From contig CAZPNL010000003.1 of NCBI GenBank assembly GCA_964588145.1, positions 1 through 47,586 on the forward strand: DNA of 47,586 nt. The letters are read 5' to 3'. The position numbers and the translations under genes were made by a program. The stretch comes from an uncultured Gammaproteobacteria bacterium (GTDB lineage Bacteria > Patescibacteriota > Microgenomatia > UBA10105 > UBA927). The notes beneath the pieces are model-generated. The model was not told where the DNA came from. It searched no databases and worked only from the letters and a program-made list of their open reading frames with translations. Of the stretch, positions 7,529 to 31,282 are shown one piece after another. Positions within the stretch are counted from its first letter, which is position 1; each line of letters starts with the position of its first letter.

Positions 7529-7545
7529 TAGGGCATGGCTTAATC

Positions 7546-7730: not shown

Positions 7731-7783
7731 ACGCAAATGAATTGATTAATAATCGTACAAAAAACACGAAGTGCGTATACAGC

Positions 7784-14501: not shown

Positions 14502-14587
14502 GCCCAGATGGTGAAATTGGTAGACACGCTAGCTTCAGGAGCTAGTGACCGTAAAAAGTCTTGGGAGTTCGACTCTCCCTCTGGGCA
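14502..14587 (+). tRNA. tRNA-Leu(CAG)
   Basis: GCCCAGA/TCTGGGC acceptor, CTAGC-TTCAGGA-GCTAG anticodon arm, long variable arm. Confidence 0.93.
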
Positions 14588-14600
14588 CATAATTAGCCAA

Positions 14601-14763
14601 TGGGAGGTTCGCCCCGTGCATGTTAGTTACGACTAACGGGGCGCCCCCTACAAAAAAATACAACCAGAAGGGGCGAATCCTCTTCTGGGCACTTATCAAA
14701 ATTGGGAGTAAACCCCGCTTCCTTTGAAATATCTAAAGCGGGGTCGACTCTCCCTCTGGGCAC
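14601..14763 (+). pseudogene. Degenerate 3'-half copies of tRNA-Leu(CAG), two with hairpin inserts in the T-loop
   Basis: 14702-14763 = TTGGGAGT + 34-nt CCCCGC...GCGGGG hairpin + TCGACTCTCCCTCTGGGCAC; further relics at about 14601-14650 and 14664-14692. Confidence 0.8.
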
Positions 14764-14851
14764 AAATAAGACGAAAGACTAAAGACGAAAGACAAAAGTT
14801 AGATGAATTGTTTAATTTTATAGCATAATATTTTGCTCGATACGAAGACAA

Positions 14852-15226
14852 ATGACCTACAAATTTGAAAAACTTGAAGTATGGACAAAGTCGAAGGAAT
14901 CGTTAAAGAATATTTATATTCTTTGCAATAAAATGCCTAAAAGTGAGGAAAGAAATCTAATTGATCAATTGCGTAGATCAGCCACATCAATTCTTTTAAA
15001 TATCGCTGAAGGAAGTGGAGCCGAAAATGATACAGAATTTAAGCGTTATTTACAAATAAGTAGAAAATCACACTTAGAGTGAGTTGCTATTCTTCTACTT
15101 ATACAAGATTTATATGGCTTTGATATAGAAAAAGAACTAGCTCAATTAGAAGAGATTGGCAAAATGCTTCACGGTTTAGTACAATACTTATCATCGGAAG
15201 CAAAAAGTACTAAATTAAGCAAATAG
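14852..15226 (+). pseudogene. Four-helix-bundle (23S rRNA IVP/Avd-like) gene interrupted by in-frame TGA
   Basis: FEKLEVW...DQLRRSATSILLNIAEG; TGA at 15080-15082, then the frame continues VAILLLIQDL...IGKMLHGLVQYL to TAG at 15224-15226. Confidence 0.8.
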
Positions 15227-15346
15227 CTTGTAATATATTTAATTACAAATTGATATATAATTATTTACTTATTGATCTCAAGTTTTCGATATTAAATTTT
15301 GTTTTTTAGTCTTTGGTCATTAGACGTTAGACTTAAGTCTTAAATT

Positions 15347-15428
15347 GCGGACGTGGCGGAATTGGTATACGCGCAGTCTTGAGGAGGCTGTGTCGCAAGG
15401 CATGGAGGTTCAAGTCCTCTCGTCCGCA
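15347..15428 (+). tRNA. tRNA-Leu(GAG)
   Basis: GCGGACG/CGTCCGC acceptor, CAGTC-TTGAGGA-GGCTG anticodon arm. Confidence 0.93.
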
Positions 15429-15471
15429 CAAATGTTTGTGGGTGCGCTAGTTTAAAACTTCATCCCCGAAA

Positions 15472-15531
15472 GAGGTTCACCCCGCTTTATATAATTCAGT
15501 TGAAGCGGGGCAAAAGTCCTCTCGTCCGCAC
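15472..15531 (+). pseudogene. 3'-end copy of tRNA-Leu(GAG) with 35-nt hairpin in T-loop
   Basis: GAGGTTCA + CCCCGCTTTATATAATTCAGTTGAAGCGGGGCAAA + AGTCCTCTCGTCCGCAC. Confidence 0.85.
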
Positions 15532-15718
15532 AAATGGTAGTTTGTGCACTACTATGACGTGTTTGATCTCTGAGGTTTATTTTGTGCATAATTAGAGCTC
15601 AAAGCAAAATACCTCGCACCTTTGATATATACAAACGGGGCACCCCGCTTTATATAATTCAATAGAAGCGGGGCAAATGAGTCGTTTTGTAAACATATAA
15701 AAGTTGAATACATAATTA

Positions 15719-16009
15719 TTGAAATCAATGATATATAATTTAGTATTTCCTATACTGCTATCACTGTTAATGACCTATTTAGGCATCGATTGTATTATCG
15801 AATACTTTCGGGGGAATGGAATTTCAGTTGATTTTAGATGGTATTTATCTCCGTTATGGCTCAGACAGCAATATTATGTTCCAGTTAAATATATAAAAGT
15901 TAAACCAAAAAAGTCTGAAAGAGTTACCTTACTGATTTTGGCAATAGGAAGTTTTTGCATTGCAGCAGTAGGTATATATTCGATTTTCATTCTTATCCAA
16001 AATAAATAA
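15719..16009 (+). CDS. Hypothetical 2-TM membrane protein
   Basis: 96-aa ORF with two hydrophobic segments; no recognised family. Confidence 0.55.
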   Translation: MKSMIYNLVFPILLSLLMTYLGIDCIIEYFRGNGISVDFRWYLSPLWLRQQYYVPVKYIKVKPKKSERVTLLILAIGSFCIAAVGIYSIFILIQNK

Positions 16010-16076
16010 GTAATTCACAAAAGTGTAATTACACACGTTCAACGAGATTTGGTAACTTATTAGAATCACTTTATCT

Positions 16077-16136
16077 GAAGTTCACCCCGCTTTTTATATT
16101 TCAGTTGAAGCGGGGCAAGAGTCCTCTCGTCTGTAC
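16077..16136 (+). pseudogene. Second, more degenerate tRNA-Leu(GAG) 3'-end copy with the same 35-nt hairpin insert
   Basis: GAAGTTCA + CCCCGC...GCGGGGCAAG + AGTCCTCTCGTCTGTAC. Confidence 0.75.
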
Positions 16137-16148
16137 AATTCATTAAAT

Positions 16149-16174
16149 AATCCCGTTAACGACGGGATTTTTTT
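16149..16174 (+). terminator. Candidate intrinsic terminator
   Basis: AATCCCGT-TAACG-ACGGGATT followed by T-run. Confidence 0.5.
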
Positions 16175-16187
16175 GTATAATACCCAT

Positions 16188-16778
16188 ATGGAACTTGCAA
16201 AAACAATCCTAGGATATGTAGCAACGCTCCTTGTATTTATAGGATACATACCATACATCAAGGATGTTGTTGCTGGGAAAACTAAACCCCACATATACAG
16301 CTGGATCCTGTGGGGTCTAGTTACTGCTATCGCTTTCGCACTTCAGTACAGTGCTGGGGCCGGATCTGGTTCATTTGTCACGCTTGCAGCAGCCCTCATG
16401 TGTGGTGTGGTGATTGTGTTATCACTAAAGGCTAAATCCCAAGTCAAAATAGTATTGATAGATACAGTATTTCTCCTGCTGGCCTTTCTCGCAATAGCCC
16501 TATGGCTTGTGGCCAAACAGCCTGTGCTGTCTGCTGTGCTTGTAACAGCCATAGACGTGCTGGGGTTTTTACCTACAGTGCGAAAGTCTTGGCACGAACC
16601 AGAAAGCGAGACTGTATCTTTTTATTTTCTCAATACTGCTCGATTTATGCTCTCAGTGGTCGCACTGCAAAGCTATAGTATCGTCACCACGCTCTATCCA
16701 GTCAGTTGGTTACTCATAAATTTTTGCTTTGGATTTCTGCTTATTGTCAGAAAAAGGATGCTGAGGGAAAAATCGTAG
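16188..16778 (+). CDS. Conserved hypothetical multi-TM membrane protein
   Basis: About 6 TM with internal repeat (YIPYIKD..KTKPH / FLPTVRKSWHEP), PQ-loop-like spacing; start at MELAK. Confidence 0.7.
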   Translation: MELAKTILGYVATLLVFIGYIPYIKDVVAGKTKPHIYSWILWGLVTAIAFALQYSAGAGSGSFVTLAAALMCGVVIVLSLKAKSQVKIVLIDTVFLLLAFLAIALWLVAKQPVLSAVLVTAIDVLGFLPTVRKSWHEPESETVSFYFLNTARFMLSVVALQSYSIVTTLYPVSWLLINFCFGFLLIVRKRMLREKS

Positions 16779-16786
16779 CAAAAAAA

Positions 16787-18118
16787 TTAATTAGTTTCAT
16801 TGCAAGTATACTTATACACATGCCAGGAAAATCTCGTAAAGCAAGCGCCTTCTGGCTTGAATTGTATTTTTCGTTGTCTATCTCCGAGGTATATGTATAA
16901 AGGTGTAGGGAGCTTATCAAGCAATTCTTTTTCAACATCACGATTATTACTGAGCCAAAACTGATTCCACTGATCATAATTCCAATAGACATCGTATTGA
17001 CCAAATCCTGGCGTAATGGATCTTCTTTCAGAATAGCCATACACCCACGGTGTGTATTCGTTGTCCGCCACAAGTATATAGCTATCTGGCTCCGTTGTTT
17101 GCAAAAGTTTAATTTCTTCAAATTCATCTGTCAGTATCAGTGCCTCAGACTGGGTATAGACAAAATATATATTTGAAACAAGTAGTATTGCCAGTACTAT
17201 ATATCTTAAGTGGGTTTTTAATCGCGCGAGTACTGGTGCTGCTAGGAGTATCGCAAAAATATCAATATATGGAATAAATCTTCGTGATAAAAACATGCCT
17301 GACGCCTGTAAGAGGCTGATAAAAAATAATATCCAAATTTCTGGAACTCTTACTATCTTTTTATGAAAATACGAAAACCCTGCAAATACGATATACAAAG
17401 ACATATACACAAGTGACGGTACTATGTCCATAAACGTCCCGCTCTCTGCGGCTGGCATGACTCCACGGATAAAGCTAGGAAGAAATGGCATGATAGTACG
17501 ATCAAAATTTGGCACATAATATAGGAAAAATGCAGAAAGCGCAGATAATGCTGTAACTATATGAAATCTACTCCACATCTTATGATATAAGGGGACAAAG
17601 ATCACTACTACCGCTAGAATCGCTGTCGGCTGATGTAAAAGTATGAGAGCAGGAGTCAGTATCCATGCCCATTTTGACTTTGCCCTGTAGGCTAGTATAA
17701 GCCAAAGGAGGAGCGCTATCGCAAATATATTTTTTAGATAGTAGTACCAATACAGCTTGTATTGAATCACCGATAGACTCAAAAGTGTCACCGCAGAAAT
17801 AGCTGACTTGGCATCATACAGCTTTCGAGCCACAATGTAGACACTAAAAAACAATGAAAGAGATGCGAGTAGAATCAACGGCACCAATATTGATTCTGGA
17901 GTTGCCCAAAATGTCGTGAGTTTGACGACCACTGGTAGAAGTGGGGGATACATGCTGATCACCCAATCTGGAAGGCTTGTATAGCCCAGGAGTGGTACTT
18001 GTGTATAAGACTTAAACAGATATAGATACAGTCCAGGGTCATATCCCAATGGAACTGGTGAGAATAGATAGCTATATATTCTTATAAAAAAGAAATAAAA
18101 GCCTATAAAAAATAACAT
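16787..18118 (-). CDS. Polytopic membrane protein, GT-C-like glycosyltransferase candidate
   Basis: TM1 followed by PLGYDPGLY acidic loop, many TMs, soluble C-terminal domain. Confidence 0.6.
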   Translation of the reverse strand: MLFFIGFYFFFIRIYSYLFSPVPLGYDPGLYLYLFKSYTQVPLLGYTSLPDWVISMYPPLLPVVVKLTTFWATPESILVPLILLASLSLFFSVYIVARKLYDAKSAISAVTLLSLSVIQYKLYWYYYLKNIFAIALLLWLILAYRAKSKWAWILTPALILLHQPTAILAVVVIFVPLYHKMWSRFHIVTALSALSAFFLYYVPNFDRTIMPFLPSFIRGVMPAAESGTFMDIVPSLVYMSLYIVFAGFSYFHKKIVRVPEIWILFFISLLQASGMFLSRRFIPYIDIFAILLAAPVLARLKTHLRYIVLAILLVSNIYFVYTQSEALILTDEFEEIKLLQTTEPDSYILVADNEYTPWVYGYSERRSITPGFGQYDVYWNYDQWNQFWLSNNRDVEKELLDKLPTPLYIYLGDRQRKIQFKPEGACFTRFSWHVYKYTCNETN

Positions 18119-18123
18119 ATTAC

Positions 18124-18918
18124 TTAAAAATCAGGAACGTAAATTACAATACGATTGCTATCAACGTATGAATCAGAAGGAATTGTTTGAACAGGCCCAT
18201 GCTTGTTAATAATAATATCTTGAAGCTCCTCGTAATCAATAAAGTTGGATTCATCTATCGCAATAACCATATGTTCAGAAGCTTTGTATTTTGAAGAAGA
18301 TTGTGACAAATATACATTTTGATAATTATTAGCCCTTAGAAATGTAGCTAGCTCTTGGGCGCTATGAGTATTTTTATTATAAATTATATGAATATATGAT
18401 GCTCTAAGAAAATAATTACTTTGCTTTACATAAATATGTCCGAAATATCCCAACAATACACCTAAAAACAATAAACTTATATACGAAATATATAGCTGAA
18501 ATTTTAAAAGTATTATATGTATCTTTGATATTATAAATAAAATATCATTCAAAATAGAGTCAATAAATATGACCAGTAAAATCATAAAAAATATATCAAA
18601 TCTATGAAAATATACAAAGCCTGCTAATAAAGTAAATATAATTATTCGTATAAAATTATAAGCATATAATATGTATTTGCGATTACTATAAAAATGAGCA
18701 ATCTGTAATTTGTTAATATCAACAGTGGTAACAATAATAGAATATATACATCCAAAAAAAATAACTAAAAATAGGTACATCTCGATACCATTAATGGTGC
18801 CAAGATTGCTCAAGGTTTCTTGTAAAAAAATTCGCAAAAGAAGATATAGCAATATACTATATTGAAATAGTTTAATAAAAAAATAATATAAAACTGATAA
18901 AATATAGGACATAATCAA
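18124..18918 (-). CDS. Hypothetical membrane protein with soluble C-terminal (possibly LytR_C-like) domain
   Basis: 264 aa, very AT-rich coding; domain call is weak. Confidence 0.5.
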   Translation of the reverse strand: MIMSYILSVLYYFFIKLFQYSILLYLLLRIFLQETLSNLGTINGIEMYLFLVIFFGCIYSIIVTTVDINKLQIAHFYSNRKYILYAYNFIRIIIFTLLAGFVYFHRFDIFFMILLVIFIDSILNDILFIISKIHIILLKFQLYISYISLLFLGVLLGYFGHIYVKQSNYFLRASYIHIIYNKNTHSAQELATFLRANNYQNVYLSQSSSKYKASEHMVIAIDESNFIDYEELQDIIINKHGPVQTIPSDSYVDSNRIVIYVPDF

Positions 18919-18931
18919 AATTACCTAATTA

Positions 18932-20833
18932 CTATTTCTTACAATAGCTAGAATGTATATCATCTACTTGAGCACTACTGAGTTTATATATTGCTAAATC
19001 AACTGCCATATTTTGGGACTCACGAGGTACATTATTGCAATAATCCATGGCTGTTTGTGTCAGAACGTGTCCCATTTCAGAAAATCCCTGAGTTTGGGTT
19101 AGCCGAAAAATTTCACATGTTTTAGCTAACCTTGGATAGAGTAAAGCAGTATAATTCACATACTCAGGATTAAATTTTAAAATATTTTTTGAAATCTCAC
19201 TTTTACGATTTGTAATAATATAATAATCTTCGTAATGACAAATATTTGATTTTGGTGTAGATAGGTTTTTACTATTGTACAAACTTCCACCTTGAGATAG
19301 TGATATATTTAACAAATTTTCTAAGGATTTTTGATCTAAGGCTATTGTTTGAAAATTATATAAAAAATACAAAGGCTCACCAATTTTTGCATCACCAATT
19401 GAATTGTAATCGATATAATATACTGATTTGTCATATGATAATTGTTTAGATAATAATTTAGTCTGCTCTATAGACCCAGAATACTCTTTAACTAACAAGG
19501 AAGGGTACGATAATGCAATATTAATGGTAATTATCAACAACAAAATAATATATTTTAAGCTTCCCCTCATATAACCTAAAGCTACTGCTGATAATAAACT
19601 CAACCATGGAAAAATTATATGGTAATACCGACGCAAAAACCAAGGCATATCAAAACTAATTGAAGGATTAAATATATATACAAAATGTGGCAGTATTATA
19701 AAAATAATCATTATAATCAATTTAAACTGATATTTATCACGTTTTATTATTGAAGCCAAACCAATACATGCAAGCAATATATATAGCAGTGCATTATACA
19801 AGTTGAGTATATATAAGCTCATTTGGGGTATATGATACTCAAGCGCATTAGGATCAATTTGTGCGCGACGCAATTGAGAGTAATTAGTAGTACTTAATAC
19901 ACCAGAGTGGACAATATTTGTATAAATGTTGGATATAAATGAACTTAGTTGACTAATCGTAGATGTGTTAAGAATAAATACATAATAATAAAATGGTATA
20001 AATAACACGAATACAATTATAAAGTCATAAATAATTTTGCGGAAATTATTTGATCGTAAAAAAATAAAAATAGTATAAAGCGATGCAAATATAATACCTT
20101 CTATACGAGTCAAAGATAACAAAAGTACAGAAATTACTCCAAACCACTTTATGTGAACTTTATTAGTTTTATAATACTCAACAAGGCATAATAATGAGTA
20201 AAACACTAAACACAATGCTAAATTTTCACTATATGTTTTTCTACTTACCCAGGTAAAGCAATAAGTAGTAGTAAATATAAGAATAGCAATAATGGATGTT
20301 CTTAGCCCAAAAAGTCGAATAGATAATCCATAAAATGAGAATAATCCAAAAATGAGCAATAGTGCTTGTGAAATCGGTACAACATAGTATCCAAATATAG
20401 AGATAAACCATGCTAGCCAAATTGTATAAGCTGGGTAAAAACCTTGCTGTATGCAATCGTTAGAAAGTATGTATCCTGGATACGATAAAATGTTTATATT
20501 AGAAAAACAATATGATCCATGTTTTGAGATTTCTATAGCAGAATTTGCATATACCCCATCATCCCTACCTCCCAAATACACTTCATGAAACTGTACTATT
20601 CCAAAAATTGCAATGGTAATTATATACATAGGCACAAACATATTTATATAATTAATAGATTTAATATTAATTGTAAAAATAACCTTGAATGTGTTTCCTA
20701 TACACATGAAGAATAATAATATCGACAATATACTATTAAATTTTCCCAAAAAGCTTATGACACAAAGAATTAACGCACTAAATAAATATGGAAATACAAT
20801 ATAAAGTAATTTTTGCGTATTTAGATATTGCAT
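18932..20833 (-). CDS. Polytopic membrane protein, GT-C/PMT-like glycosyltransferase candidate
   Basis: GGRDDGVY loop after the N-terminal TMs, TYSENLA and LTRIEG motifs. Confidence 0.65.
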   Translation of the reverse strand: MQYLNTQKLLYIVFPYLFSALILCVISFLGKFNSILSILLFFMCIGNTFKVIFTINIKSINYINMFVPMYIITIAIFGIVQFHEVYLGGRDDGVYANSAIEISKHGSYCFSNINILSYPGYILSNDCIQQGFYPAYTIWLAWFISIFGYYVVPISQALLLIFGLFSFYGLSIRLFGLRTSIIAILIFTTTYCFTWVSRKTYSENLALCLVFYSLLCLVEYYKTNKVHIKWFGVISVLLLSLTRIEGIIFASLYTIFIFLRSNNFRKIIYDFIIVFVLFIPFYYYVFILNTSTISQLSSFISNIYTNIVHSGVLSTTNYSQLRRAQIDPNALEYHIPQMSLYILNLYNALLYILLACIGLASIIKRDKYQFKLIIMIIFIILPHFVYIFNPSISFDMPWFLRRYYHIIFPWLSLLSAVALGYMRGSLKYIILLLIITINIALSYPSLLVKEYSGSIEQTKLLSKQLSYDKSVYYIDYNSIGDAKIGEPLYFLYNFQTIALDQKSLENLLNISLSQGGSLYNSKNLSTPKSNICHYEDYYIITNRKSEISKNILKFNPEYVNYTALLYPRLAKTCEIFRLTQTQGFSEMGHVLTQTAMDYCNNVPRESQNMAVDLAIYKLSSAQVDDIHSSYCKK

Positions 20834-20834
20834 A

Positions 20835-21911
20835 TCAATAAGATTTACTTAAAATCTGAAGATAGCTTTCTATAAATTGATTTTTATCAAATTTTTCAGA
20901 CTGAAAATAATTATCAATAATATTTACTTCTGGTTTACGTAAAATCACAGACTCGATGGCATTATATATATCATTATTATCAAATGGATCTATCATAACT
21001 CCTGCGCTTCCTAAAACCTCAACTATAGAAGAGGTACGAGAAGAAATTACTCTACAGCCATATTGAAGTGCCTCTAAAACGGGAAATCCAAATCCTTCAT
21101 AAATCGAAGGATATATAAAAGCTATTGAATGTAGGTAAAGATTTACTTTAATATGATCTGGAACATAACCTAAATATTCAATATTATTATACAAATTATT
21201 CGCATCAATATAATCAAATATCTCACTATATTTCCAGCCCTTTTTACCCACTAGTACTAGTTTATAGCCAGGATACTTTTGAATTATTTTATGGAAAGCC
21301 TGTAACAATCGAAGAATGTTCTTTCTGGGTTCTATAGTACCGACATATAAAAAATATGGTACTTTTATATATGGAACATCTTGATCATCTATACTTAGCC
21401 TGTCTAAAGAGGGATATATAACACTAATTTTTGAACTAGATATATGAAAATGCTTTATAAGATCATTTTTTGTACTTAAAGATGGAACAACGATTTTAAA
21501 GCAATGATCTAAGCTGAATTTCATGAGAATTTTATAAATTAATACCCGAGTAAAGGGATGAGTATTTGGATAAATAATCCAACTAAGGTCATAAATCACC
21601 ATAATTTCTTTCTGCTTAAAAGGCCAAATATGTGGAGTGCCATCTGTATTTATAATGTAGTCAAAATCCATATGTCGTATACGAAAAGGCAAAGTAAGAC
21701 ACCATGAAATATTTTTAAAAATAGGCATAAAAGATGGCAAAAGCACAAGATTATCCTTATTGAAATCATTTTTAAGATAATCTAAGAATGAAAATTGCCA
21801 ACCCAACTTTGATGACTTATGTAACAAGCCAGAGCATAGCGTTTTCGTATACACGCCTATTCCCGTTAAATTGTCACGAACGCTATCTGTTGTAACAGCA
21901 ATATTTCTCAT
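20835..21911 (-). CDS. Glycosyltransferase family 4
   Basis: YVGTIEPRKN, YPSIYEGFGFPVLEAL. Confidence 0.92.
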   Translation of the reverse strand: MRNIAVTTDSVRDNLTGIGVYTKTLCSGLLHKSSKLGWQFSFLDYLKNDFNKDNLVLLPSFMPIFKNISWCLTLPFRIRHMDFDYIINTDGTPHIWPFKQKEIMVIYDLSWIIYPNTHPFTRVLIYKILMKFSLDHCFKIVVPSLSTKNDLIKHFHISSSKISVIYPSLDRLSIDDQDVPYIKVPYFLYVGTIEPRKNILRLLQAFHKIIQKYPGYKLVLVGKKGWKYSEIFDYIDANNLYNNIEYLGYVPDHIKVNLYLHSIAFIYPSIYEGFGFPVLEALQYGCRVISSRTSSIVEVLGSAGVMIDPFDNNDIYNAIESVILRKPEVNIIDNYFQSEKFDKNQFIESYLQILSKSY

Positions 21912-22858
21912 AAATTTTTGTATAATGATATATAGGGATCTATTGAGGTCTTACTCATTTGAGTGCTTGAAATTTTACGAAAAGAACATTTTCTAATAGA
22001 TTGAATTAATTGCTCAATATTATTATCTTGAGATAAATACGCGTTTTTATAGCCATGCAATGTTTCACCTATAGCACTATTGTTAAAAGTAAATATTGCT
22101 AATCCAAACTTCATTGCATCTCGAAGCTGATAACCATACCCCTCAAACATTGATGGACACAACATACCATCTGACTTCTTATATAATTCTAAAAGTTCAT
22201 CTCGAGTAGATACGACCACTGGGATCATATTTTTAGGAAGCCCATAATATAAATGACGTTTAGCAGTAAAATACAGCACATATCTTTCACCCAGAGATTT
22301 CATTATTGACGAAAGCAAATGAAAACCCTTTCGGTGACTATTTGATCCTACAAACAATAATCTGACACTAGAAGATTTGATACTATTTTCCTTGTATTTA
22401 ATAGGTGAAAGTGGTTCATCTATTGGCTGTATATAAATCGTCTTTTTATTAGGAAAAGAATTTATGAATGACTTTTTTGTGTACTGACTAATTGCAATAA
22501 TTTTCGAAGATATTAGTAGTGATTTTCGAATTTGACTACGTAAAAAATTACTATAGTAAAACTTTTGTAGTACTGTACACCTATGAAAGTAGGTCAGATC
22601 AAATACATTGTGAAATATACTTGAAATAATCTTATTTGTAGTATAAGCAAAAATCCATGCATATTCTATATTTGTATGTACAACATCTGCAGCACGGCCA
22701 TAGCCTGCAATGCGAAGAACATAGGGTACATATTGAAAGACATGATGATGCTTATGAAGCGTTACATTCATGTTTCGATTCTTTAGTGTGTTAAATAAAT
22801 TGATAAAATACACATCGCTACCTGTGCCACAATGAATATAATGTATTTCTATTTTCAT
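21908..22858 (-). CDS. Glycosyltransferase family 4
   Basis: FVGSNSHRKGF, PSMFEGYGYQLRDAM. Confidence 0.85.
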   Translation of the reverse strand: MKIEIHYIHCGTGSDVYFINLFNTLKNRNMNVTLHKHHHVFQYVPYVLRIAGYGRAADVVHTNIEYAWIFAYTTNKIISSIFHNVFDLTYFHRCTVLQKFYYSNFLRSQIRKSLLISSKIIAISQYTKKSFINSFPNKKTIYIQPIDEPLSPIKYKENSIKSSSVRLLFVGSNSHRKGFHLLSSIMKSLGERYVLYFTAKRHLYYGLPKNMIPVVVSTRDELLELYKKSDGMLCPSMFEGYGYQLRDAMKFGLAIFTFNNSAIGETLHGYKNAYLSQDNNIEQLIQSIRKCSFRKISSTQMSKTSIDPYISLYKNL

Positions 22859-24048
22859 ATTTTCTTATAAATCTCTTTATATAATTTTGAGGTTACATTG
22901 AGCGAATATTTTTTGATAAAAACTTTTCTTGTATAGATCTTCTTATGTTGAGGACTTTTTAAGCTTTTGATTATTGCTCTTGCAAGCTGCTGGCTATCTC
23001 CTGGTTTAACAAGCTTTCCAATTCTATTGTTCGAAATTATTGAAGGGATACCACCTGACCGAGACCCTATCAAATTGCAGCCACATAATCCAGCCTCTAT
23101 GAGAGACAAACCGAGTCCTTCACAATCTCCATTTCTCGCAACTATTGAGGGATAGATAAAAAGTTTTGAATTAGAATAATAATTAACCAATTGATTATTA
23201 GGCACACCACCAATAAATGAAATATTCCTCTTTAAATAAAGCTTTGCAATTAATTGTAAAAGATTTTCGTATTCATCTCCCTTACCGATAATGGTAAGCT
23301 TAACCATTGGATAAGTTTTAACAACTTTTGATAATGCCTCTATTAATACAAATAGGCCCTTCTTCTCGACAAGTCTTCCAACATACAGAATATCACTCTT
23401 GTACTTAGTGCAATCTCCAGCATGACATATTTTCTTAAAATGCAGATCGTCTACTCCAATTGGAATAACATCAATTTTTACCTTTGAACCTATGACATTA
23501 AGTACATAATTTTTTAACTGGGGACTAACAGCATTTACTTGACTTGCTTGGTCTAAAATATATTTTTTCAAGTGCATAATTGGAAAATAATTCAAAGTAT
23601 ATACATCAGCACCATGTAAAGTTAAAACATAATGCATGTTGCACATTTTTTTTAACACTAAAGCCACAATCCCTTGTGGTAAAAGCCAGTGGGCGTGTAT
23701 AAACGAAATATTATAAGAACTACAAATATATAAGGCAAAAACTATTTGAGATAATATAAAACCAGGCACCAACAAGGCTCGAAGTACATTATTCTGAATA
23801 GATGAAAGAATTCCGGAAATACCACAGAGAACTTCTAAATTATATGGAATAGCATATATAAATCGAAATATACTCACTTGTTCAGATAATTTTTCATAAA
23901 TACGTGCTTTTTTAAAATGAGGTCCCAAAAGAATAACTTTATAATCATCAGATACTTTGTGTGCTAAATTGACAATAAAATTAGGTAAAGTATCATGTTG
24001 CCATCTTGGCAAAGTCGATGTAAGCATAAGGACAGTAGGTTGCAGCAT
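22855..24048 (-). CDS. Glycosyltransferase family 4
   Basis: HAHWLLPQG, YVGRLVEKKG, EGLGLSLIEA. Confidence 0.92.
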   Translation of the reverse strand: MLQPTVLMLTSTLPRWQHDTLPNFIVNLAHKVSDDYKVILLGPHFKKARIYEKLSEQVSIFRFIYAIPYNLEVLCGISGILSSIQNNVLRALLVPGFILSQIVFALYICSSYNISFIHAHWLLPQGIVALVLKKMCNMHYVLTLHGADVYTLNYFPIMHLKKYILDQASQVNAVSPQLKNYVLNVIGSKVKIDVIPIGVDDLHFKKICHAGDCTKYKSDILYVGRLVEKKGLFVLIEALSKVVKTYPMVKLTIIGKGDEYENLLQLIAKLYLKRNISFIGGVPNNQLVNYYSNSKLFIYPSIVARNGDCEGLGLSLIEAGLCGCNLIGSRSGGIPSIISNNRIGKLVKPGDSQQLARAIIKSLKSPQHKKIYTRKVFIKKYSLNVTSKLYKEIYKKI

Positions 24049-24060
24049 ATGTGTAATAGT

Positions 24061-25095
24061 TTATGTATTAGATATATGAGGTATATAGTGTTTTCTAAGA
24101 AATTGCTGAGAACTTTTTATGTCTGCTTTTTTAAACGATTTACGCAAAATTGGCCTATAAAAAATTTGCTTTTGAAAATACAACACCTGCTCAATAAGCT
24201 TTCGATTTGCAGCTATCAAGTCTGACACAAGACCAAGCACCATAACCTGAAATCCCGCAAGAAAAAGTACAGCCCCTATGACAAGCGATTGTATGTGTCC
24301 TGACCCATCACCAACAGATAGATAGATGAGGAATCTCATAAACAGCAATAAGCCAAATCCTAATAGTATCGAGCCCAGATAAAAAAATGTTTTTAACGGC
24401 TCATACATAGCAAACACACGTACCATAGTAGAGCCACTCATTCGTATATGCTGAAAAATGTTCTTAAAAAGTCGAGATTCGCGAGTCTTGGCATTGGTCG
24501 TTACCGGCACAGAAACTATTTTTAGCCTTTTTTTTCCAGCTTGTATGATGCTTTCAGTACAGTAAGAATATTCGGTAGTTATATTAAGTTGAAGTGCTGC
24601 CTCTCGAGAATATGCACGAAAACCTGAAACTGCATCAGGAAGTTCTATTCCAGATAGTTTAGCAACTGCCGCAGAGCCAACTTTTTGTAATAGCTTTTTT
24701 AATGGAGAAAAATGCGCTATGGTATCAGTTTGTCTATTTGCTACTACTATATCCGCGTGATTGTTTAAGATAGGTTCAATAAGTCTCCCTATGTCAGCTT
24801 GTGGATATTGATTGTCACCGTCAGTATTGACGATAATATCAGCGCCATGCTCTAGTGCTGCCTGGATGCCATCTGAAAAGGATTTTGCAAGTCCACGAGT
24901 TTTAAGATGTTTAATCACTTGTATAGCGCCATATTTGAGAGCGATATCAGCTGTCTGATCACTGGAGCCATCATCAATGATAATCGTTTCAATATTGCTA
25001 ACACCTTTTATAGATCTAGGAATATTACTGAGCACCAAAGGTAGCGTGGCCGACTCATTAAGACATGGGATAATAATTATAAGCTTTCTAGTCAT
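24061..25095 (-). CDS. Glycosyltransferase family 2 (DPM-synthase-like) with C-terminal TMs
   Basis: IPCLNE, IDDGSSD, NTDGDNQY, SGFRAY; start trimmed to MTRKLIII. Confidence 0.92.
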   Translation of the reverse strand: MTRKLIIIIPCLNESATLPLVLSNIPRSIKGVSNIETIIIDDGSSDQTADIALKYGAIQVIKHLKTRGLAKSFSDGIQAALEHGADIIVNTDGDNQYPQADIGRLIEPILNNHADIVVANRQTDTIAHFSPLKKLLQKVGSAAVAKLSGIELPDAVSGFRAYSREAALQLNITTEYSYCTESIIQAGKKRLKIVSVPVTTNAKTRESRLFKNIFQHIRMSGSTMVRVFAMYEPLKTFFYLGSILLGFGLLLFMRFLIYLSVGDGSGHIQSLVIGAVLFLAGFQVMVLGLVSDLIAANRKLIEQVLYFQKQIFYRPILRKSFKKADIKSSQQFLRKHYIPHISNT

Positions 25096-25224
25096 ATGAA
25101 AAAGTATATAGTAGTATACTACTATAAGACATATACAGCAAGTATAGAGCATATGGACTTGCTTTTATACATAAAAGTGCTATCATCTGAGTTGCCCTGT
25201 AGTATATTTAATTAATATAAAATT

Positions 25225-25842
25225 ATGAAAAATTCTCTAAAAGTAGCCCTTGTAAGTACAATCCTTTTATCTTTGCCTTGTTCTTCTGTGTTGGCAGGGT
25301 ATGGATCAGCACCATCTCCCGCACGTGCCCCAGTGTGTGGTCAATCCAAACCAGAAACCCCCGAATTTACATTTGTAAAAAATAGTGGCGCAGATCAGAT
25401 TGAGTTGGGATGGAACCATGTAGACAGAGCCACATCCTGGACCATCGCCTATGGTCGTCAAAAAGGGAAATATGTGTATGGTATGAGTGATTTTGGAGAT
25501 TCCAGTAGCAAATCAGTGACTATCGGTATGCTTCCTGCAGGAAGCTACTACATAGTGCTACGAGCAAATCATGATTGTATGCCAGGTGCATTTTCCACGG
25601 AGAGACAAATAGTAGTTTCAGGTGGAGGTGTCGTCCAAACAGTGTATGCAAATGAAGATAATTATGTGCCTGAAGTAGTTTATGTACCATCAGGCACCCC
25701 TGCGCCTACGCAAAGCATCACCCCTACACCAAAGGTGACTGTATATCCACAACCCTCGCCAACTGTTATGGAAGTGCAGCCTAAAAGATCATGGCTCAGT
25801 AATTTTTTCCATAACCTGGTAGATTTCATCTTTGGTAAATAA
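25225..25842 (+). CDS. Exported protein with fibronectin-III-like domain and Pro/Thr-rich tail
   Basis: Signal peptide; IELGW...WTIAYG...VTIGMLPAGSYYIVLRA; PTP repeats. Confidence 0.65.
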   Translation: MKNSLKVALVSTILLSLPCSSVLAGYGSAPSPARAPVCGQSKPETPEFTFVKNSGADQIELGWNHVDRATSWTIAYGRQKGKYVYGMSDFGDSSSKSVTIGMLPAGSYYIVLRANHDCMPGAFSTERQIVVSGGGVVQTVYANEDNYVPEVVYVPSGTPAPTQSITPTPKVTVYPQPSPTVMEVQPKRSWLSNFFHNLVDFIFGK

Positions 25843-25855
25843 AACCGGGATAAAT

Positions 25856-27397
25856 TTAAGGCTTACAAGAAAAAACTTCCATGCGTGGCTCATCTCTGAG
25901 GAATGCGGATCGCATGCTCTCATCAAATCCTTCATATTTATACGCAGGATAGCGGACCATAGGATGCTTATATGAGTACAAAACATTTTTATTGCACTTC
26001 ATTAATCTTTGTCCGTAGTATGGGTATAGATACTCAATGTTTTGTGCATATACAACGTTTTGCCCAAGTGTAAGCATCATAGATTGATCATCAATAGATT
26101 CTTTTATCGTATGTACATATGTTGGTCGAAGCAGATTGCTTTTTTGTTGCATCGCAGCTACAGATTCTGGATATATTGTATAAAAAAGTTGCATATAACT
26201 TTTGAAAAAAGAAAAACTGGCAACAACGATAAATAATAGGGTCAATATAATATTTTTATGCTTGATTTTTCGCAGTGCTGTTTCAAATCCAATCAGTGAG
26301 AATAGGAAAAGTATAAGAAGCAATGGACGCAGTGTGCGGCCGTAAAGTACAGTTATATGGAGCAAATGACTTACGATCTCCAACACAATAAAACTAATAA
26401 ATAGATAAATAAAAAGAAAGTTGTTTTGTCCTCGCCTCCAGTAACAAAAGTGTAAAATGCACCCAACTAAAAGAAATGCGAGAAATACAACACCATCTGT
26501 ATGCATGACGAAATCAGTTAAAAACTGTCCCAGAAATACAAAATTTCCTTGGGTGACTGTTTCTGAAAGGCGAGACTGTGTAACCAGATATGACTCAGCG
26601 CCAACAAGTCTACTAGTCAGCTCAAAAAATAAGAGAGGCACCAGAAATCCTACTACAAACGTCAATGTGAAGGAAGATATGCTTTTAAGAAATTTTTTGA
26701 AAGGAAATTTATATATATCTACTAACACCACTATAAAAAATGTCAGTCCCAATGCAGCAATATAGTAACTATGTCCTGGGTAGACTGCTTGTGATAAGCC
26801 CGAGTATAAACCAGCAAGCAGGACATTTTTTTTATTGGTTGCTACAATAACTGCAAGCATCAGAAATATCAAGCTACTATCATATGGCAACATGTGTCGG
26901 ACATATGAAAGCGACAATGAACATAAACTTATGACAAATATTGCGCTTAAAGCAAATGCTTGTGATGCTTGGGATCTTAAAAACCTATAGATGACCAATA
27001 GGAGTAATATATTTATGCCGTAATTCCATATATTACCAAAAAATGCTTGCGGTACAAAGTCAGCTTGATAGGGCGGAATCAGTTGAGTAATTTGCCCAGT
27101 ATTATGATCTAAAAAAGCTGGTACTGCGTGGGTTATGCCAAAACCAGGCCGAGCAGCCAGAGTAAAAATTGATTGTAAATAAGGGAGAATGGAATTCTGA
27201 GACAACGATTTTTCGGCGGCAAGCGATAAGTAGTGATATCTGATTTCATCTGGAAAAAAATAGACAGAGTCAGTACGAAAAAGCAAAATTCTACTTAAAA
27301 TAATAAGCAAAAATACTACTATTGTGGGTGTCTGATGTTTAACTATAACTGAGCGTAGAAAATGCAACTTCCACATGCATAAAGTATACCATCTCAA
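25856..27397 (-). CDS. Polytopic membrane protein, GT-C-like candidate
   Basis: FFPDEIRY loop after TM1; multiple TMs; true start may be slightly downstream. Confidence 0.6.
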   Translation of the reverse strand: MRWYTLCMWKLHFLRSVIVKHQTPTIVVFLLIILSRILLFRTDSVYFFPDEIRYHYLSLAAEKSLSQNSILPYLQSIFTLAARPGFGITHAVPAFLDHNTGQITQLIPPYQADFVPQAFFGNIWNYGINILLLLVIYRFLRSQASQAFALSAIFVISLCSLSLSYVRHMLPYDSSLIFLMLAVIVATNKKNVLLAGLYSGLSQAVYPGHSYYIAALGLTFFIVVLVDIYKFPFKKFLKSISSFTLTFVVGFLVPLLFFELTSRLVGAESYLVTQSRLSETVTQGNFVFLGQFLTDFVMHTDGVVFLAFLLVGCILHFCYWRRGQNNFLFIYLFISFIVLEIVSHLLHITVLYGRTLRPLLLILFLFSLIGFETALRKIKHKNIILTLLFIVVASFSFFKSYMQLFYTIYPESVAAMQQKSNLLRPTYVHTIKESIDDQSMMLTLGQNVVYAQNIEYLYPYYGQRLMKCNKNVLYSYKHPMVRYPAYKYEGFDESMRSAFLRDEPRMEVFSCKP

Positions 27398-27411
27398 TCT
27401 CTCATCAAATT

Positions 27412-27420
27412 TGATATAAT
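27412..27420 (+). promoter_or_regulatory. Extended -10 promoter (TGnTATAAT) for tRNA-Val/Phe cluster
   Basis: TGATATAAT upstream of the tRNA-Val relic and gene. Confidence 0.5.
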
Positions 27421-27439
27421 ATCACTCTGTAGGAATAAA

Positions 27440-27492
27440 GACGATTAGCTCAGATGTTTACCCCGAAAGCGTAAGCTTTTTGGGGGTAGAGC
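27440..27492 (+). pseudogene. 5'-half copy of tRNA-Val with 29-nt hairpin in D-loop
   Basis: GACGATTAGCTCAGATG + TTTACCCCGAAAGCGTAAGCTTTTTGGGG + GTAGAGC. Confidence 0.8.
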
Positions 27493-27519
27493 AAAAAAAT
27501 TAACATACAAGCATGATAA

Positions 27520-27592
27520 GGACGATTAGCTCAGCTGGTAGAGCGCTTCATTTACACTGAAGATGTCGGGGGTTCGAGTCCCTCATCGTCCA
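27520..27592 (+). tRNA. tRNA-Val(TAC)
   Basis: GGACGAT/ATCGTCC acceptor, CTTCA-TTTACAC-TGAAG. Confidence 0.93.
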
Positions 27593-27660
27593 CAAAATAA
27601 GCCTAAAGTCTTAAGACGAAAGTCGATAGACCTGTGTTAAAATATAAAGTGTTCTAACTG

Positions 27661-27733
27661 GCCGAGCTGGCCGAGATAGTCAAGGCGCATGTCTGAAAAA
27701 CATGTTATCTGGGTGCAAATCCTAGGCTCGGCA
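27661..27733 (+). tRNA. tRNA-Phe(GAA)
   Basis: GCCGAGC/GCTCGGC acceptor, CATGT-CTGAAAA-ACATG; T-loop variant TGCAAAT. Confidence 0.88.
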
Positions 27734-27825
27734 CTCAAAAATTTCGTTTTATAGAGAAATTTTTAAGTGTAAACACCAAAGTAAAGCTTCTAGTTGTAGC
27801 TGTTTGAAAGATTTATACGCATATA

Positions 27826-27949
27826 TAGACGTTCTGGTGGTACCTTTAGTGGTGCAGGATGATGTTTCGTCATCCCGGTGCAGATGTGTGCCGTTATAGT
27901 CAGAGTAATTGATAAATTTTTACAAAATTCATCAATTGCAGAACGTCTA
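27826..27949 (+). ncRNA. Retron ncRNA (msr-msd) candidate
   Basis: Perfect 11-bp inverted repeats TAGACGTTCTG (27826-36) / CAGAACGTCTA (27939-49); G at 27837 right after the stem; three short stem-loops (27840-55, 27857-75, 27876-93); long AT-rich hairpin 27905-27939. Confidence 0.85.
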
Positions 27950-27952
27950 CAC

Positions 27953-28849
27953 ATGGGTATGAATTTCTTTCAAAAACTATTTGACGGTGGACGTGGTTCG
28001 GACATATTGGCACAAAAATTTGGATTCAATCCAGAAATCCTTTCCACTTGGGAACAGGGAAATCCAAATGGTTGTGATTACACTACCTTTCAAATACCCA
28101 AACGTCGCAAAGGTGCATATCGCACTATCACGGCACCAAATCCACCACTCAAGGCATTACAACGCCAAGTGTATAGAAATGTGCTTAAACGACTCCCGGT
28201 ACACCCAGCGTGCACAGGGTTTTCTCCAAAAAAATCAACAGTAGATGCAGCCATGCCCCATGTAGGCAAAGAAGTGGTTATACATATGGATCTCAAAGAT
28301 TTTTTTGATCACATCACCTATGATCGTATTTATAATTATTTTCGTGCGATAGGGTGGGGGAAATATGTCTCTCATATCCTTACAAATATCCTCACAAAAG
28401 ATGGCAAAGCACCACAAGGTGCGCCTACTAGTCCTATGATCTCTAATCTTATCGCATACAAGCTAGATGCTCGCATAAATAGCCTCATGGAGACATTTGA
28501 AGGCTCTTATACACGCTATGCTGATGACATTACGTTATCATTTAGATCAAGCAATATGCATTTCAAAAGCGCACTCCATATAGTATGTACCATTATTAAC
28601 GAAGAAGGTTTCAAAATCCAAAAAGCCAAAAAAATCAAAATCATGCGGCCACATGACAGGCAGGAAGTGCTATCAATCATCGTCAATAAAAAACTCAATG
28701 CGCCGAGAAAAATGCGTAGACTCATACGTGCCATGGAGCATGCTAATAGAATTGGAAAACTCCCATCACATGAATATGCAAAACTGGATGGCTACAAATC
28801 GTACATAAATATGATAAATATGGGACGAGCCAAACCTTCATTACAATGA
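27953..28849 (+). CDS. Retron-type reverse transcriptase (298 aa)
   Basis: IPK...RTITAP, LKALQR, MDLKDFF, PQGAPTSP, YTRYADD; start trimmed to ATG 27953 (or 27959), directly after the ncRNA repeat. Confidence 0.92.
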   Translation: MGMNFFQKLFDGGRGSDILAQKFGFNPEILSTWEQGNPNGCDYTTFQIPKRRKGAYRTITAPNPPLKALQRQVYRNVLKRLPVHPACTGFSPKKSTVDAAMPHVGKEVVIHMDLKDFFDHITYDRIYNYFRAIGWGKYVSHILTNILTKDGKAPQGAPTSPMISNLIAYKLDARINSLMETFEGSYTRYADDITLSFRSSNMHFKSALHIVCTIINEEGFKIQKAKKIKIMRPHDRQEVLSIIVNKKLNAPRKMRRLIRAMEHANRIGKLPSHEYAKLDGYKSYINMINMGRAKPSLQ

Positions 28850-28852
28850 TAC

Positions 28853-28881
28853 TTGAGCGTGTCTCTAAAAAAATATATAAT
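28853..28881 (+). promoter_or_regulatory. Sigma70-type promoter for tRNA-Gly(GCC)
   Basis: TTGAGC-17 nt-TATAAT. Confidence 0.6.
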
Positions 28882-28890
28882 GAAATAAGT

Positions 28891-28962
<72 letters not shown>

Positions 28963-28980
28963 CAAACAATTGTTAGTAGG

Positions 28981-30954
28981 CTAAAGTTTCTTACCCATTG
29001 GATAAATAATCTCGTAAATACTAACTTCGGAGTTTGAAAAAACTCTACTAGCGATGGTACTATTTTCAATAATCGGATAATTTGAATTTGAATTGAGATA
29101 AATATATTTAATTTTATTTGCCATCGCCAATCGTACATACGTATCTGGTTGAGCAGACTGAAAAAATTGAAAATAGACCCTGCTTCGTTCTGAAGCTTGA
29201 GGATACCCGTGAGCCTCAGTACTAAATCTTTGTGAATAATACATGGGATGTTGAGAAAACAATCCTACGTATGCTTCTACTTCATCGAGCTTATTTATGG
29301 GATCTACAATAGTTAAATAATTGATATTGGCATAATTCTTTAAATAATGTAATGCTTCAAATTCGAGTGAACTTATATGATTTGGCCGTATAAATATATA
29401 CTCATTCCAATTTACTATATGTGAATATATGCGATTGAGAGTAAATAGACCAATAATAATATAAAACCCAAAACGCAATAAAAAAGGCTTTTGTTTCATG
29501 CCGTAACTAAAAGCCGAAGCGCAATACGGCAAAACTGCATACATTGCAATAAGGATGAATACGGAACTATGATCACCTCCGCTATCTTGTAAAAAGGTAG
29601 TGCCAATAAAAATAGAAATAAGTATAGATGGAATCAGAAAAATATGAAATTCAATAGGAAATTTACCCATAGAATACCTCGTTTGAAATATCCAAAAAGA
29701 GCGTAACAAAAAATATGTAACCAAAAAGATACAGTAGAGCAATGGACCAATGACACTCCCAAGCATAAAAAAGCCAAGGTGAAAATCTACTTTTCCAAAA
29801 CGAGTTACATTATGCACTGACTGTTCCAATATTTGACTTATCTGTGGGTTAAGTTGAGACGAAATCTTCTCTAAGAGGGTTTTCCCGTGCCAAAAACCAG
29901 CAAAATGTATACCTCCAGACCCATGATTGGTAGGCAAATAGAGCGCCAAAGATAAGACTATAGTCAAAATCAATGTTGGAATTCTAACAAACTTTTTTTG
30001 CAAGACAAACCAATACCCTATAAATGCCACCCCCATGCAAAGAAATATACCCGTATGCGCTTTTATGCCCACAGAAGTTGCAATAACAATAATAATGAGA
30101 AATGAAACTATACGAGTGGGCGCTCGTAACCAAAGTACAAGTAGAGATAGTGCTGAAAATATCTGAGGAAGAGACAAGGAGGTAGTAAGATTTGCCCCTA
30201 CGCTGGGATAATTTTGACTAAAATATGCAAAAAATAAAATCCATACTTTGTATGAGTTATTTAGTTGTAATATATTAGCCAAAAGTAAAATATGTGCCCC
30301 ATACATAATCGTCATAAATGGGACGAAATAGTGTGTCAAAGTGTATATAAAAGGTAAATCAAATACGCGTACAAGATCTGCAATTACGAGGTGAGAAAAA
30401 TAGTGATAATTTTGTATATATATGCCAGACATACCAGGAGTAAAGGGTGGCATCTGTTTGAGCAATTGATACAAATGACCCAACTCTCCTACCTGGTTAT
30501 ACGTGGCAAAAGACAATGATCCATCGCGTGTTTGTACTCCCACAAACACTATGACAGTCTCTATGAGAGTAGCTAGTAGTATCAATCCCAACATTAGTAA
30601 TGATACTCTCGTAAAGCGAAATGAAAACGTTGGTAATAATGTTTTACAGCGTATTAACCAGAATATGACACATGCCAAAACATATACATAACTCAAATAT
30701 CTCACTTGAAGCATTCCGAATATATACCCTTGGAGAATCCAGAGTGCTAGTCCAGCGCTGGTTGAAAGTGTTATATTTTGCCACCAGCCAAGTTTGAGCT
30801 TGTGGACAAGTATATTACCAGGGATAGTCATCGAAAAGAGAATAGCAAACCAAAACAGTAGAAAACCCCACCAGAATCTAAAGTCAGAATATGTAAGCAG
30901 CTCAATGGGATAGTGCATGAGGATTTTTTTTGAGGCAGTGTATTGTATACCCAA
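28981..30954 (-). CDS. Large polytopic membrane protein (GT-C-like candidate)
   Basis: 657 aa, many TMs, periplasmic loop PPFTPG...NYHYFSH, soluble C-terminal domain. Confidence 0.6.
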   Translation of the reverse strand: MGIQYTASKKILMHYPIELLTYSDFRFWWGFLLFWFAILFSMTIPGNILVHKLKLGWWQNITLSTSAGLALWILQGYIFGMLQVRYLSYVYVLACVIFWLIRCKTLLPTFSFRFTRVSLLMLGLILLATLIETVIVFVGVQTRDGSLSFATYNQVGELGHLYQLLKQMPPFTPGMSGIYIQNYHYFSHLVIADLVRVFDLPFIYTLTHYFVPFMTIMYGAHILLLANILQLNNSYKVWILFFAYFSQNYPSVGANLTTSLSLPQIFSALSLLVLWLRAPTRIVSFLIIIVIATSVGIKAHTGIFLCMGVAFIGYWFVLQKKFVRIPTLILTIVLSLALYLPTNHGSGGIHFAGFWHGKTLLEKISSQLNPQISQILEQSVHNVTRFGKVDFHLGFFMLGSVIGPLLYCIFLVTYFLLRSFWIFQTRYSMGKFPIEFHIFLIPSILISIFIGTTFLQDSGGDHSSVFILIAMYAVLPYCASAFSYGMKQKPFLLRFGFYIIIGLFTLNRIYSHIVNWNEYIFIRPNHISSLEFEALHYLKNYANINYLTIVDPINKLDEVEAYVGLFSQHPMYYSQRFSTEAHGYPQASERSRVYFQFFQSAQPDTYVRLAMANKIKYIYLNSNSNYPIIENSTIASRVFSNSEVSIYEIIYPMGKKL

Positions 30955-31103
30955 AAAATCATAAATATATATGATTTTTTGAGTATAGACCCATCTAATC
31001 AGCTTTGCTACCTCTTAGAGTTGCAAACCTGAGTAAGATGGGTTTACAATAACATATACCTCTTTATGCCCGAGCTCACAAGTAGGCAATTGAGGCTATA
31101 ATT

Positions 31104-31172
31104 TGCGGGGTCGTTCAATGGTAGGTCCCTTATATTCGCATTCGCTCATATAAGGGATTAAAAACACTTGCC
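31104..31172 (+). pseudogene. 5'-half relic of a tRNA-Gln with hairpin insert after the D-loop
   Basis: TGCGGGGTCGTTCAATGGTAGG + TCCCTTATAT...ATATAAGGGA insert + ACACTTGCC. Confidence 0.75.
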
Positions 31173-31193
31173 ATCTTTGGTCATGTGTGGCGC

Positions 31194-31265
31194 TGCGAGG
31201 TCGTTCAATGGTAGGACACTTGCCTTTGGAGCAAGGTATTCTTGGTTCGAATCCAAGCCTCGCAG
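31194..31265 (+). tRNA. tRNA-Gln(TTG)
   Basis: TGCGAGG/CCTCGCA acceptor, CTTGC-CTTTGGA-GCAAG. Confidence 0.93.
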
Positions 31266-31282
31266 CGCTGCACAGGACAAAT

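Follow-up and report, generated by a model that had tools for sequence, protein, structure and literature searches.

Can a retron that consists of little more than a reverse transcriptase (RT) gene and its non-coding RNA (ncRNA) be a unit in its own right, or is it what remains of a larger system? This question is raised by a short locus of a Patescibacteria genome, in which a retron-type RT and an msr-msd-like ncRNA lie between the genes of tRNA-Phe and tRNA-Gly, without any other gene. All coordinates are positions in the analysed window, a 47,586-nt stretch of contig CAZPNL010000003.1 (assembly GCA_964588145.1), forward strand. The first-pass annotation of this DNA had described the two tRNA bounds, a promoter-like site ahead of tRNA-Gly and the lack of both an effector open reading frame (ORF) and a domain fused to the RT, and this anatomy proved correct. 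It had also described characterised defence retrons as tripartite, which does not hold for all retrons, since stand-alone (msr-msd)-RT cassettes have been reported for RT clades 2 and 11 (Mestre et al., 2020; PMC7736814). The reading favoured here, with a probability of roughly 0.6, is that the locus is a stand-alone retron cassette, still functional or so until recently, which belongs to an effector-less clade and has been acquired horizontally.

The RT (27953..28849, plus strand, 298 aa) belongs to the retron lineage by both profile and fold. The Pfam RVT_1 domain spans residues 48-241 (5.1e-26), and dozens of PADLOC retron RT models match the protein, down to 3.8e-82, with RT_XIII as the best one (274.8 bits). 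The NCBIfam model of the St85 retron RT gave 220.5 bits, just under its cut-off of 235. The best solved relative is the Ec86 RT (1.3e-38), and the AlphaFold2 model (predicted local distance difference test, pLDDT, 91.4) is superposed end to end on the RTs of Ec86, Eco7 and Ec83, with Foldseek template modelling (TM) scores of 0.78-0.80 over about 290 columns. No extra fused domain was found by Pfam, in the AlphaFold2 model or in the Foldseek superposition. The YADD motif, which is present in 195 of 199 related RTs, is intact at residues 189-192. The RT gene is the single one of the host genome, and in the ORF list it is the sole ORF between the two tRNA genes other than short overlapping alternative frames. 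The alignment of homologs places its start at the ATG at 27953, while the alternative starts, namely a GTG (323 aa) and that of the public gene call (321 aa), would both read through the ncRNA. The public call (P0001; 27884-28849) begins within the msr region. The possibility that another frame of the RT gene, antisense frames included, encodes an effector was also considered and rejected: the apparently conserved antisense and +1 ORFs of GC-rich homologs all fall within the RT coordinates, those of the AT-rich window reach at most 72 aa, and such clusters are by-products of RT conservation.

The second component is the 124-nt ncRNA (27826-27949, plus strand), which folds with a minimum free energy of -55.8 kcal/mol (z = -7.0) into the shape of a classic msr-msd. 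Its a1 arm, TAGACGTTCTG (27826..27836), is the perfect 11-nt complement of the a2 arm, CAGAACGTCTA (27939..27949), which ends 3 nt ahead of the RT start codon, and the repeat extends to 26 nt at 85%. The arms close three short msr hairpins (27840-27855, 27857-27875 and 27876-27893) and a 34-nt msd hairpin (27905..27938), which coincides with inverted repeat I5 (14 nt, 93%). The same order of a1, three hairpins, msd hairpin and a2 was found upstream of the RT in 6/6 of the nearest homologs fetched, with differing stem sequences and with a hairpin of variable sequence at the msd position; SL3 of the msr part was recognised in them by eye. The second msr hairpin (the GAUGUUUCGUC stem-loop) and the U-G-G that follows a1 are nearly invariant across the homologs, and U10-G11-G12 and G14 are invariant in the alignment of seven sequences.

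A covariance model, named R1, was built from these seven ncRNAs, namely that of the window and those of its six nearest homologs, and with it the RNA was recovered at 13 further GTDB loci (E < 0.01), immediately ahead of the RT and on its strand. In an alignment of 26 ncRNA sequences, 94% of the cells are paired versus 72.6% in shuffles, and 122 cells carry double changes versus 35.8 in shuffles and at most 26 in slid controls; this alignment was fitted to the R1 model, but the margin over the controls is nonetheless large. In helix 1 (a1/a2) 8/9 pairs covary, and pairing reaches 93.8% in helix 2 and 99.5% in helix 3, both of which show compensatory changes. Terminal repeats, msr and msd hairpins and an unpaired G after a1 are therefore all present in the RNA adjacent to the RT. 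The first unpaired G past a1, G27837, is the predicted priming (branching) guanosine, a placement which follows characterised retrons with their unpaired G after a1 (PMC7736814). By the same analogy, the msd hairpin would serve as the template of a multicopy single-stranded DNA (msDNA) of about 35-45 nt. At gathering score, the Rfam scan of the whole window returned only tRNA families. The R1 family is present in one copy in the host genome and in one copy in each of 10 other genomes in which it scored (E <= 0.001); the search of 6 further genomes of clade hosts gave no match at this threshold.

Two further resemblances of the ncRNA were set aside. The a2 arm is similar to the D-arm region of tRNA-Gly (14/17; D3, I19), but the exact match is a 9-mer, a length that chance alone would produce in a region of 1.4 kb, and a2 fits the family consensus CAGrrC. 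The msd arm at 27905-27927 matches contig C19:1165-1187 in 22 of 23 positions, within a 731-aa ABC-2/GldG-like membrane ORF, to the mRNA of which the msDNA would be antisense; 2/300 shuffles were equal or better, and the match is probably due to chance.

Whether the missing effector is peculiar to this copy was addressed by a survey of neighbouring genes, in which ORFs within +/-6 kb were called in 86 loci and clustered; 20 of these loci carry the R1 ncRNA. In the 20 R1 loci no neighbour recurs within this distance besides the RT and frames overlapping it, and the SWIM_XIII and WGR_XIII families are absent from all of them (0/20). The six nearest RT homologs (43-49% identity) are flanked by unrelated housekeeping genes, among others those of a sortase, shikimate dehydrogenase, methyltransferases, radical SAM enzymes, PIG-L and a GT1 glycosyltransferase. 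The neighbourhoods of close homologs thus contain no consistent effector that could have been deleted from the window; the presence of such an effector was what the first-pass annotation had named as fatal to its proposal of a divergent stand-alone lineage. In this respect that proposal is supported, as the unit has two parts and the lack of an effector extends to all 20 loci of the ncRNA family. The candidates suggested for a partner acting in trans, a distant HNH gene and the neighbouring membrane genes, found no support, since no neighbour recurs with the RT elsewhere.

Partners do appear among more distant loci. In 32 of them the RT is preceded by a shared 550-aa protein, which matches PADLOC SWIM_XIII (cluster 114; 804 bits in the L027 example), and 14 share a 1,100-aa protein that matches WGR_XIII/HEAT-ARM (1,159 bits). 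Both families are type XIII partners, and these linked relatives are canonical type XIII retrons. In the RT tree, 136 of 198 sequences form a clade (support 99, stem length 0.45 in FastTree) that contains all R1 loci and no SWIM-linked RT; the median RT length is about 318 aa in this clade versus 505 aa for the SWIM-linked RTs. Judged from these sequence comparisons, the missing effector is a trait of the clade and not a local deletion. The linked or fused effector that marks the tripartite defence retrons (types I-XIII) was not found at the locus. Judging by record and protein names, the clade has hosts among the Planctomycetota, Verrucomicrobiota, Armatimonadota and Chloroflexi, and it occurs on at least one further Patescibacteria contig. 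The nearest RT subclade of the window copy comprises P0002, P0003, P0007 and P0015 (support 96); locus L001 of this subclade lies on a Patescibacteria contig, judging by its SHMT relatives, and its RT has neither a partner nor a tRNA neighbour. A retron RT of a different kind was met in genome G047, a member of the Patescibacteria from the same class as the host. This RT (L089:402-1997) has 531 aa and a C-terminal extension, and its best models are RT-TIR (XII) with 381 bits and RT-protease (XI) with 366 bits. Because it scores best on fused models, effector-fused retrons also occur in the class of the host.

The survey also bears on the idea that the cassette is part of a three-part retron, the effector of which is encoded elsewhere, either unlinked in the genome or on a contig that was not assembled. 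Such a partner in trans has been raised as a possibility for orphan retrons by Mestre et al. (PMC7736814), and the host assembly (1.55 Mb in 139 contigs, 88.8% complete) leaves some room for it. However, SWIM_XIII and WGR_XIII, the partners of the nearest typed relatives, have no match in the host genome even at E <= 1, and the cassette moved into the tRNA spacer alone. Moreover, a linked partner is lacking in 20/20 related loci from different phyla, and therefore a conserved partner in trans would need a separate transfer every time. This explanation is considered rather improbable.

Assigning the cassette to one of the known retron types is limited by the reach of the existing models. In calibration, a true type XIII RT (L027) scored 636.4 bits on RT_XIII (model positions 12-434) versus 330 on the next model, and a true III-A RT 469 versus 359 bits. 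Eight members of the clade reached best-model scores of 251-308 bits, with the runner-up types (XI, XII, X and 'other') 1-29 bits behind in 6/8 of them, 44 bits in P0053 and 39 bits in P0026; the RT_outgroup scores in the clade were 205-272 bits. As the scores are low and nearly tied, none of the PADLOC retron RT models represents the clade. From the tree, the clade appears either to be the sister group of the type XIII (Mx162-like) lineage or to lie inside it. With the type XIII retrons (Mx162, Mx65, Sa163 and Ne144; RT clade 10) the unit shares its best PADLOC model, and the SWIM-linked RTs are its nearest typed relatives. It differs from them in several respects. Neither the SWIM nor the WGR/HEAT-ARM partner is present, the RT lacks the N-terminal extension of about 140 aa, so that its match covers positions 141-415 of the 469 in the RT_XIII model, its score of 275 bits falls well below the 636 of a bona fide member, and the ncRNA, with its 124 nt, is much shorter.

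Another parallel is offered by the orphan retrons, that is, the Retron-Eco5/Ec107 branch of RT clade 2 and the 'outgroup' of RT clade 11. Like them, the window holds an (msr-msd)-RT cassette without a conserved associated protein, in a genome without homologs of known retron partners. The RT_outgroup model probably corresponds to orphan clade 11 of Mestre et al., because the SPIRE paper lists an msr/msd covariance model 'OutgroupA' for clade11-A. The SPIRE survey also reports low-confidence 'clade11-B' RTs concentrated in Planctomycetota, and this group might overlap the clade described here. In contrast to the orphan retrons, the window RT has its best score on RT_XIII (274.8 bits), above those on RT_outgroup (224.5 bits) and RT_Ec107-like (194.5 bits), a comparison that is uncalibrated against bona fide clade-11 sequences; the cassette has its own ncRNA family and other host phyla, and the window copy is without the N of NAxxH and the TG of VTG. 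With Retron-Eco1 (Ec86, type II-A3) it shares the RT fold (TM 0.79, 30% identity) and the logic of a1/a2, msr hairpins and msd hairpin, but the toxin guarded by Ec86 is NDT-like (the complex of Ec86 and its effector is seen in PDB 7v9x), whereas the window unit has no effector in cis. The unit is accordingly a new lineage of an already described stand-alone kind of retron, and not a new principle.

The window copy does stand apart from its clade in the two motifs held to be diagnostic of retron RTs. Regions X and Y read SILNNATPHIG and RKVTGLVIS in Ec86 and STVDAAMPHVG and QEVLSIIVN in the window RT. The statement that canonical NAxxH and VTG are missing from this protein was right, except that the equivalent of NAxxH is AAMPH (residues 99-103) and not DAAMPH, with N changed to A and H, the most conserved residue, retained; the equivalent of VTG is VLS (residues 239-241). 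The extension of this loss to a whole lineage was not upheld, as other members carry DNARPH and (A/V)TG, and AAMPH together with VLS is confined to the window copy. Among 199 related RTs, N99 occurs in 181 and A in 7, the window included, H103 in 198, again with the window, T240 in 187 and G241 in 197, and S241 is found in the window RT alone. On the alignment, therefore, the lineage has the canonical motifs, and it is the window copy alone that has lost them. The changes are not a sequencing slip, since several nucleotide substitutions are needed (codons CTA TCA). The ratio of non-synonymous to synonymous substitution rates (dN/dS) is uninformative here, because the nearest relatives are 48-49% identical and synonymous sites are saturated; the retention of conserved sites was used instead. 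Of the 47 columns conserved at >=93%, 44 are kept in the window RT, the departures being L153A, T240L and G241S, which suggests that the important sites have been held, with the exception of the TG dipeptide.

Several points weigh against a complete and working stand-alone cassette. The G of VTG, the most conserved residue of region Y according to Mestre et al. (PMC7736814), has been replaced here by S, a residue found at this site in none of 198 relatives, and VTG has been proposed to contact the nucleic-acid backbone and to hold the priming G in place close to YADD (PMC12475279); priming may thus be impaired in the window copy by the change from VTG to VLS. The promoter scan found no consensus promoter upstream of the ncRNA, while homologs carry TATAAT 8-14 nt upstream of a1. 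The effector survey covered +/-6 kb in 20 loci, some of them on short contigs, an unlinked partner could escape detection in a host genome that is 88.8% complete, and the RT tree was computed with FastTree and has an arbitrary root.

The first of these points could mean that the copy is inactive or decaying, having lost retron-specific priming through the changes of VTG to VLS and of N to A too recently to have been deleted. In accordance with this, G241S is unique among the 199 RTs and T240L very rare, no promoter was detected ahead of the ncRNA, and the terminal branch of the window RT is long (0.85 substitutions per site versus a median of 0.22). However, the housekeeping proteins of the host have diverged to the same degree (51-53% identity between UvrC and its best relatives), and therefore the long branch may only mirror the sampling of the host lineage. 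Moreover, the genome is small and yet the ORF has stayed intact, YADD is among the 44 highly conserved residues kept, and all ncRNA helices, including the perfect 11-bp a1/a2 pair, are preserved. With the conserved residues, the ORF and the ncRNA intact, general decay of the retron appears unlikely. The decaying retron that had been offered as the other option is consequently a weak one, although VLS leaves real doubt about priming; an inactive copy is regarded as unlikely.

How the stand-alone cassette reached its present position can be read from relatives of the host, a member of the Patescibacteria like the closest named relatives of its UvrC. In genomes of the same family the tRNA genes are closely packed in the order Leu(CAG)-Leu(GAG)-Val-Phe-Gly(GCC)-Gln, and in several of them the Phe-Gly spacer measures 20-83 nt. 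In the window, tRNA-Phe(GAA) (27661..27733/4, plus strand; ARAGORN, 58.2 bits in Rfam), a member of this ancestral array, forms the left boundary. It is followed by the retained left part of the ancestral spacer (27735..27786, plus strand) with the motif GTGTAAACACCAA, in which an AT-rich hairpin is found (27732-27769, plus strand; inverted repeat I3). The spacers of relatives L098 and L107 align to 27749-27786, and 0/300 shuffles score as high; the right half of the ancestral spacer aligns to the a2/RT-start region at chance level (20-83/300 shuffles). Because the spacer is short and empty in relatives and its left half has been retained, the cassette, from about 27787 to at most 28890, is an insertion. 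The inserted material comprises only a short leader (27787..27825, plus strand, placed by the spacer alignment), the ncRNA and the RT. On the right lie the promoter-like site for tRNA-Gly (28853..28881, plus strand; TTGAGC-17-TATAAT), which is a pattern match only, with 10/12 matches to the consensus, and tRNA-Gly(GCC) itself (28891..28962/3, plus strand; ARAGORN, Rfam).

The distribution of the RT is patchy. It was found in 0/36 same-family and 0/6 same-order genomes, and among 401 genomes sampled evenly across the phylum the window RT is the only member of the clade, three other genomes giving RT matches at <=32% identity. Since the distribution is patchy and single-copy, an accessory module, probably related to defence, is favoured over a domesticated housekeeping function. 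The neighbourhood check proposed at the outset had also asked about tRNA adjacency, and here, unlike the absence of the effector, the feature is not conserved across the clade. A tRNA gene lies within about 60-110 nt in 3/20 R1 loci, namely in the window, in L003 (tRNA-Met, 7650-7722) and in L086 (tRNA-Lys, 5741-5814), the latter two on the opposite strand, 63-109 nt upstream of the retron ncRNA; this frequency exceeds a rough chance estimate.

These data bear on one more explanation, according to which the unit is a selfish, self-mobilising mini-retroelement that targets sites close to tRNA genes. The transfer unit of ncRNA and RT only, the 3/20 loci near tRNA genes and the genomic context, which differs at every locus, would fit such an element. 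However, the strictly single copy in the host and in the 10 other R1-scoring genomes argues against proliferation, the repeat analysis found no target-site duplication or terminal repeats, and autonomous mobility has so far been demonstrated for no retron (PMC7736814). A selfish element is thus very improbable.

The surroundings of the cassette give little indication of a wider defence context. According to Pfam, the genes around it encode glycosyltransferases, large membrane proteins without a Pfam domain, ApbE, GreA, an aquaporin, UvrABC and LexA. At 2406-10896, PADLOC matched mad3 (1.9e-96) and mad8 (5.2e-38) and, more weakly, ATPase-Toprim_I-B and AriA among others. The mad3 and mad8 matches are of UvrA and UvrB size, and together with the ATPase-type matches they are most likely due to genes of the UvrA/UvrB/UvrC/LexA type, although the scan gives no pairing of ORFs with families; HNH-type matches in the window are also listed, without attribution to an ORF. 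A defence island was therefore rejected, as Pfam identifies UvrB, UvrA, UvrC and LexA there and the nearer neighbours are the glycosyltransferases, ApbE, GreA and the aquaporin. The 513-aa and 657-aa membrane proteins were likewise dismissed as partners, being encoded on the opposite strand, lacking a Pfam domain and standing next to no related RT. The ancestral tRNA array as a whole has been split by three insertions (14502-31266). One of about 12 kb, between tRNA-Leu(GAG) and tRNA-Val, brought a glycosyltransferase cluster and the 513-aa membrane protein; the other two are the retron and the gene of the 657-aa membrane protein, between tRNA-Gly and tRNA-Gln. These three insertions give the array the appearance of a hot spot for insertion. 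In other members of the family (L101, L103, L106 and L109), fillers of 300-720 nt with unrelated sequence occupy the Phe-Gly site.

Taken as a working stand-alone retron, the locus suggests the following course of events. A cassette of about 1.07-1.1 kb, composed of the leader, the 124-nt ncRNA and the 298-aa RT, landed in the tRNA-Phe/tRNA-Gly spacer of the Patescibacteria genome. The RT would bind the conserved msr hairpins, prime from the 2'-OH of the unpaired G after a1 (about 27837) and copy the msd hairpin from about 27938 leftwards, which would yield a short branched msDNA. The particle of RT and msDNA would be the only product of the cassette, and we infer that it may act alone or through an unlinked host factor. 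A bolder view would extend this to the whole clade as a self-sufficient two-component system with the RT-msDNA particle as its output, in which the bare cassette relocates itself, preferentially near tRNA genes and perhaps via its own reverse-transcribed DNA. This view is speculative and its chances are small; if true, it would describe the first retron lineage with an effector-independent function and/or autonomous mobility.

Summarizing, the role of toxin-less orphan retrons has been an open question since the work of Mestre et al. (2020; PMC7736814), and the clade described here adds to them a sizeable lineage near type XIII that spans several phyla, the compact retrons of which lack an effector and have an ncRNA family of their own. 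The short cassette (about 1.1 kb) and the very short predicted msDNA lend themselves to expression tests and perhaps to editing tools based on retrons, and the natural change from VTG to VLS could, by comparison with VTG-bearing orthologs, probe the function of this motif. Moreover, the locus offers an unusually clean natural experiment, as what has been transferred is a bare ncRNA-RT unit and relatives still show the site without it; therefore, the two-part unit appears to have been transferred and kept as such.

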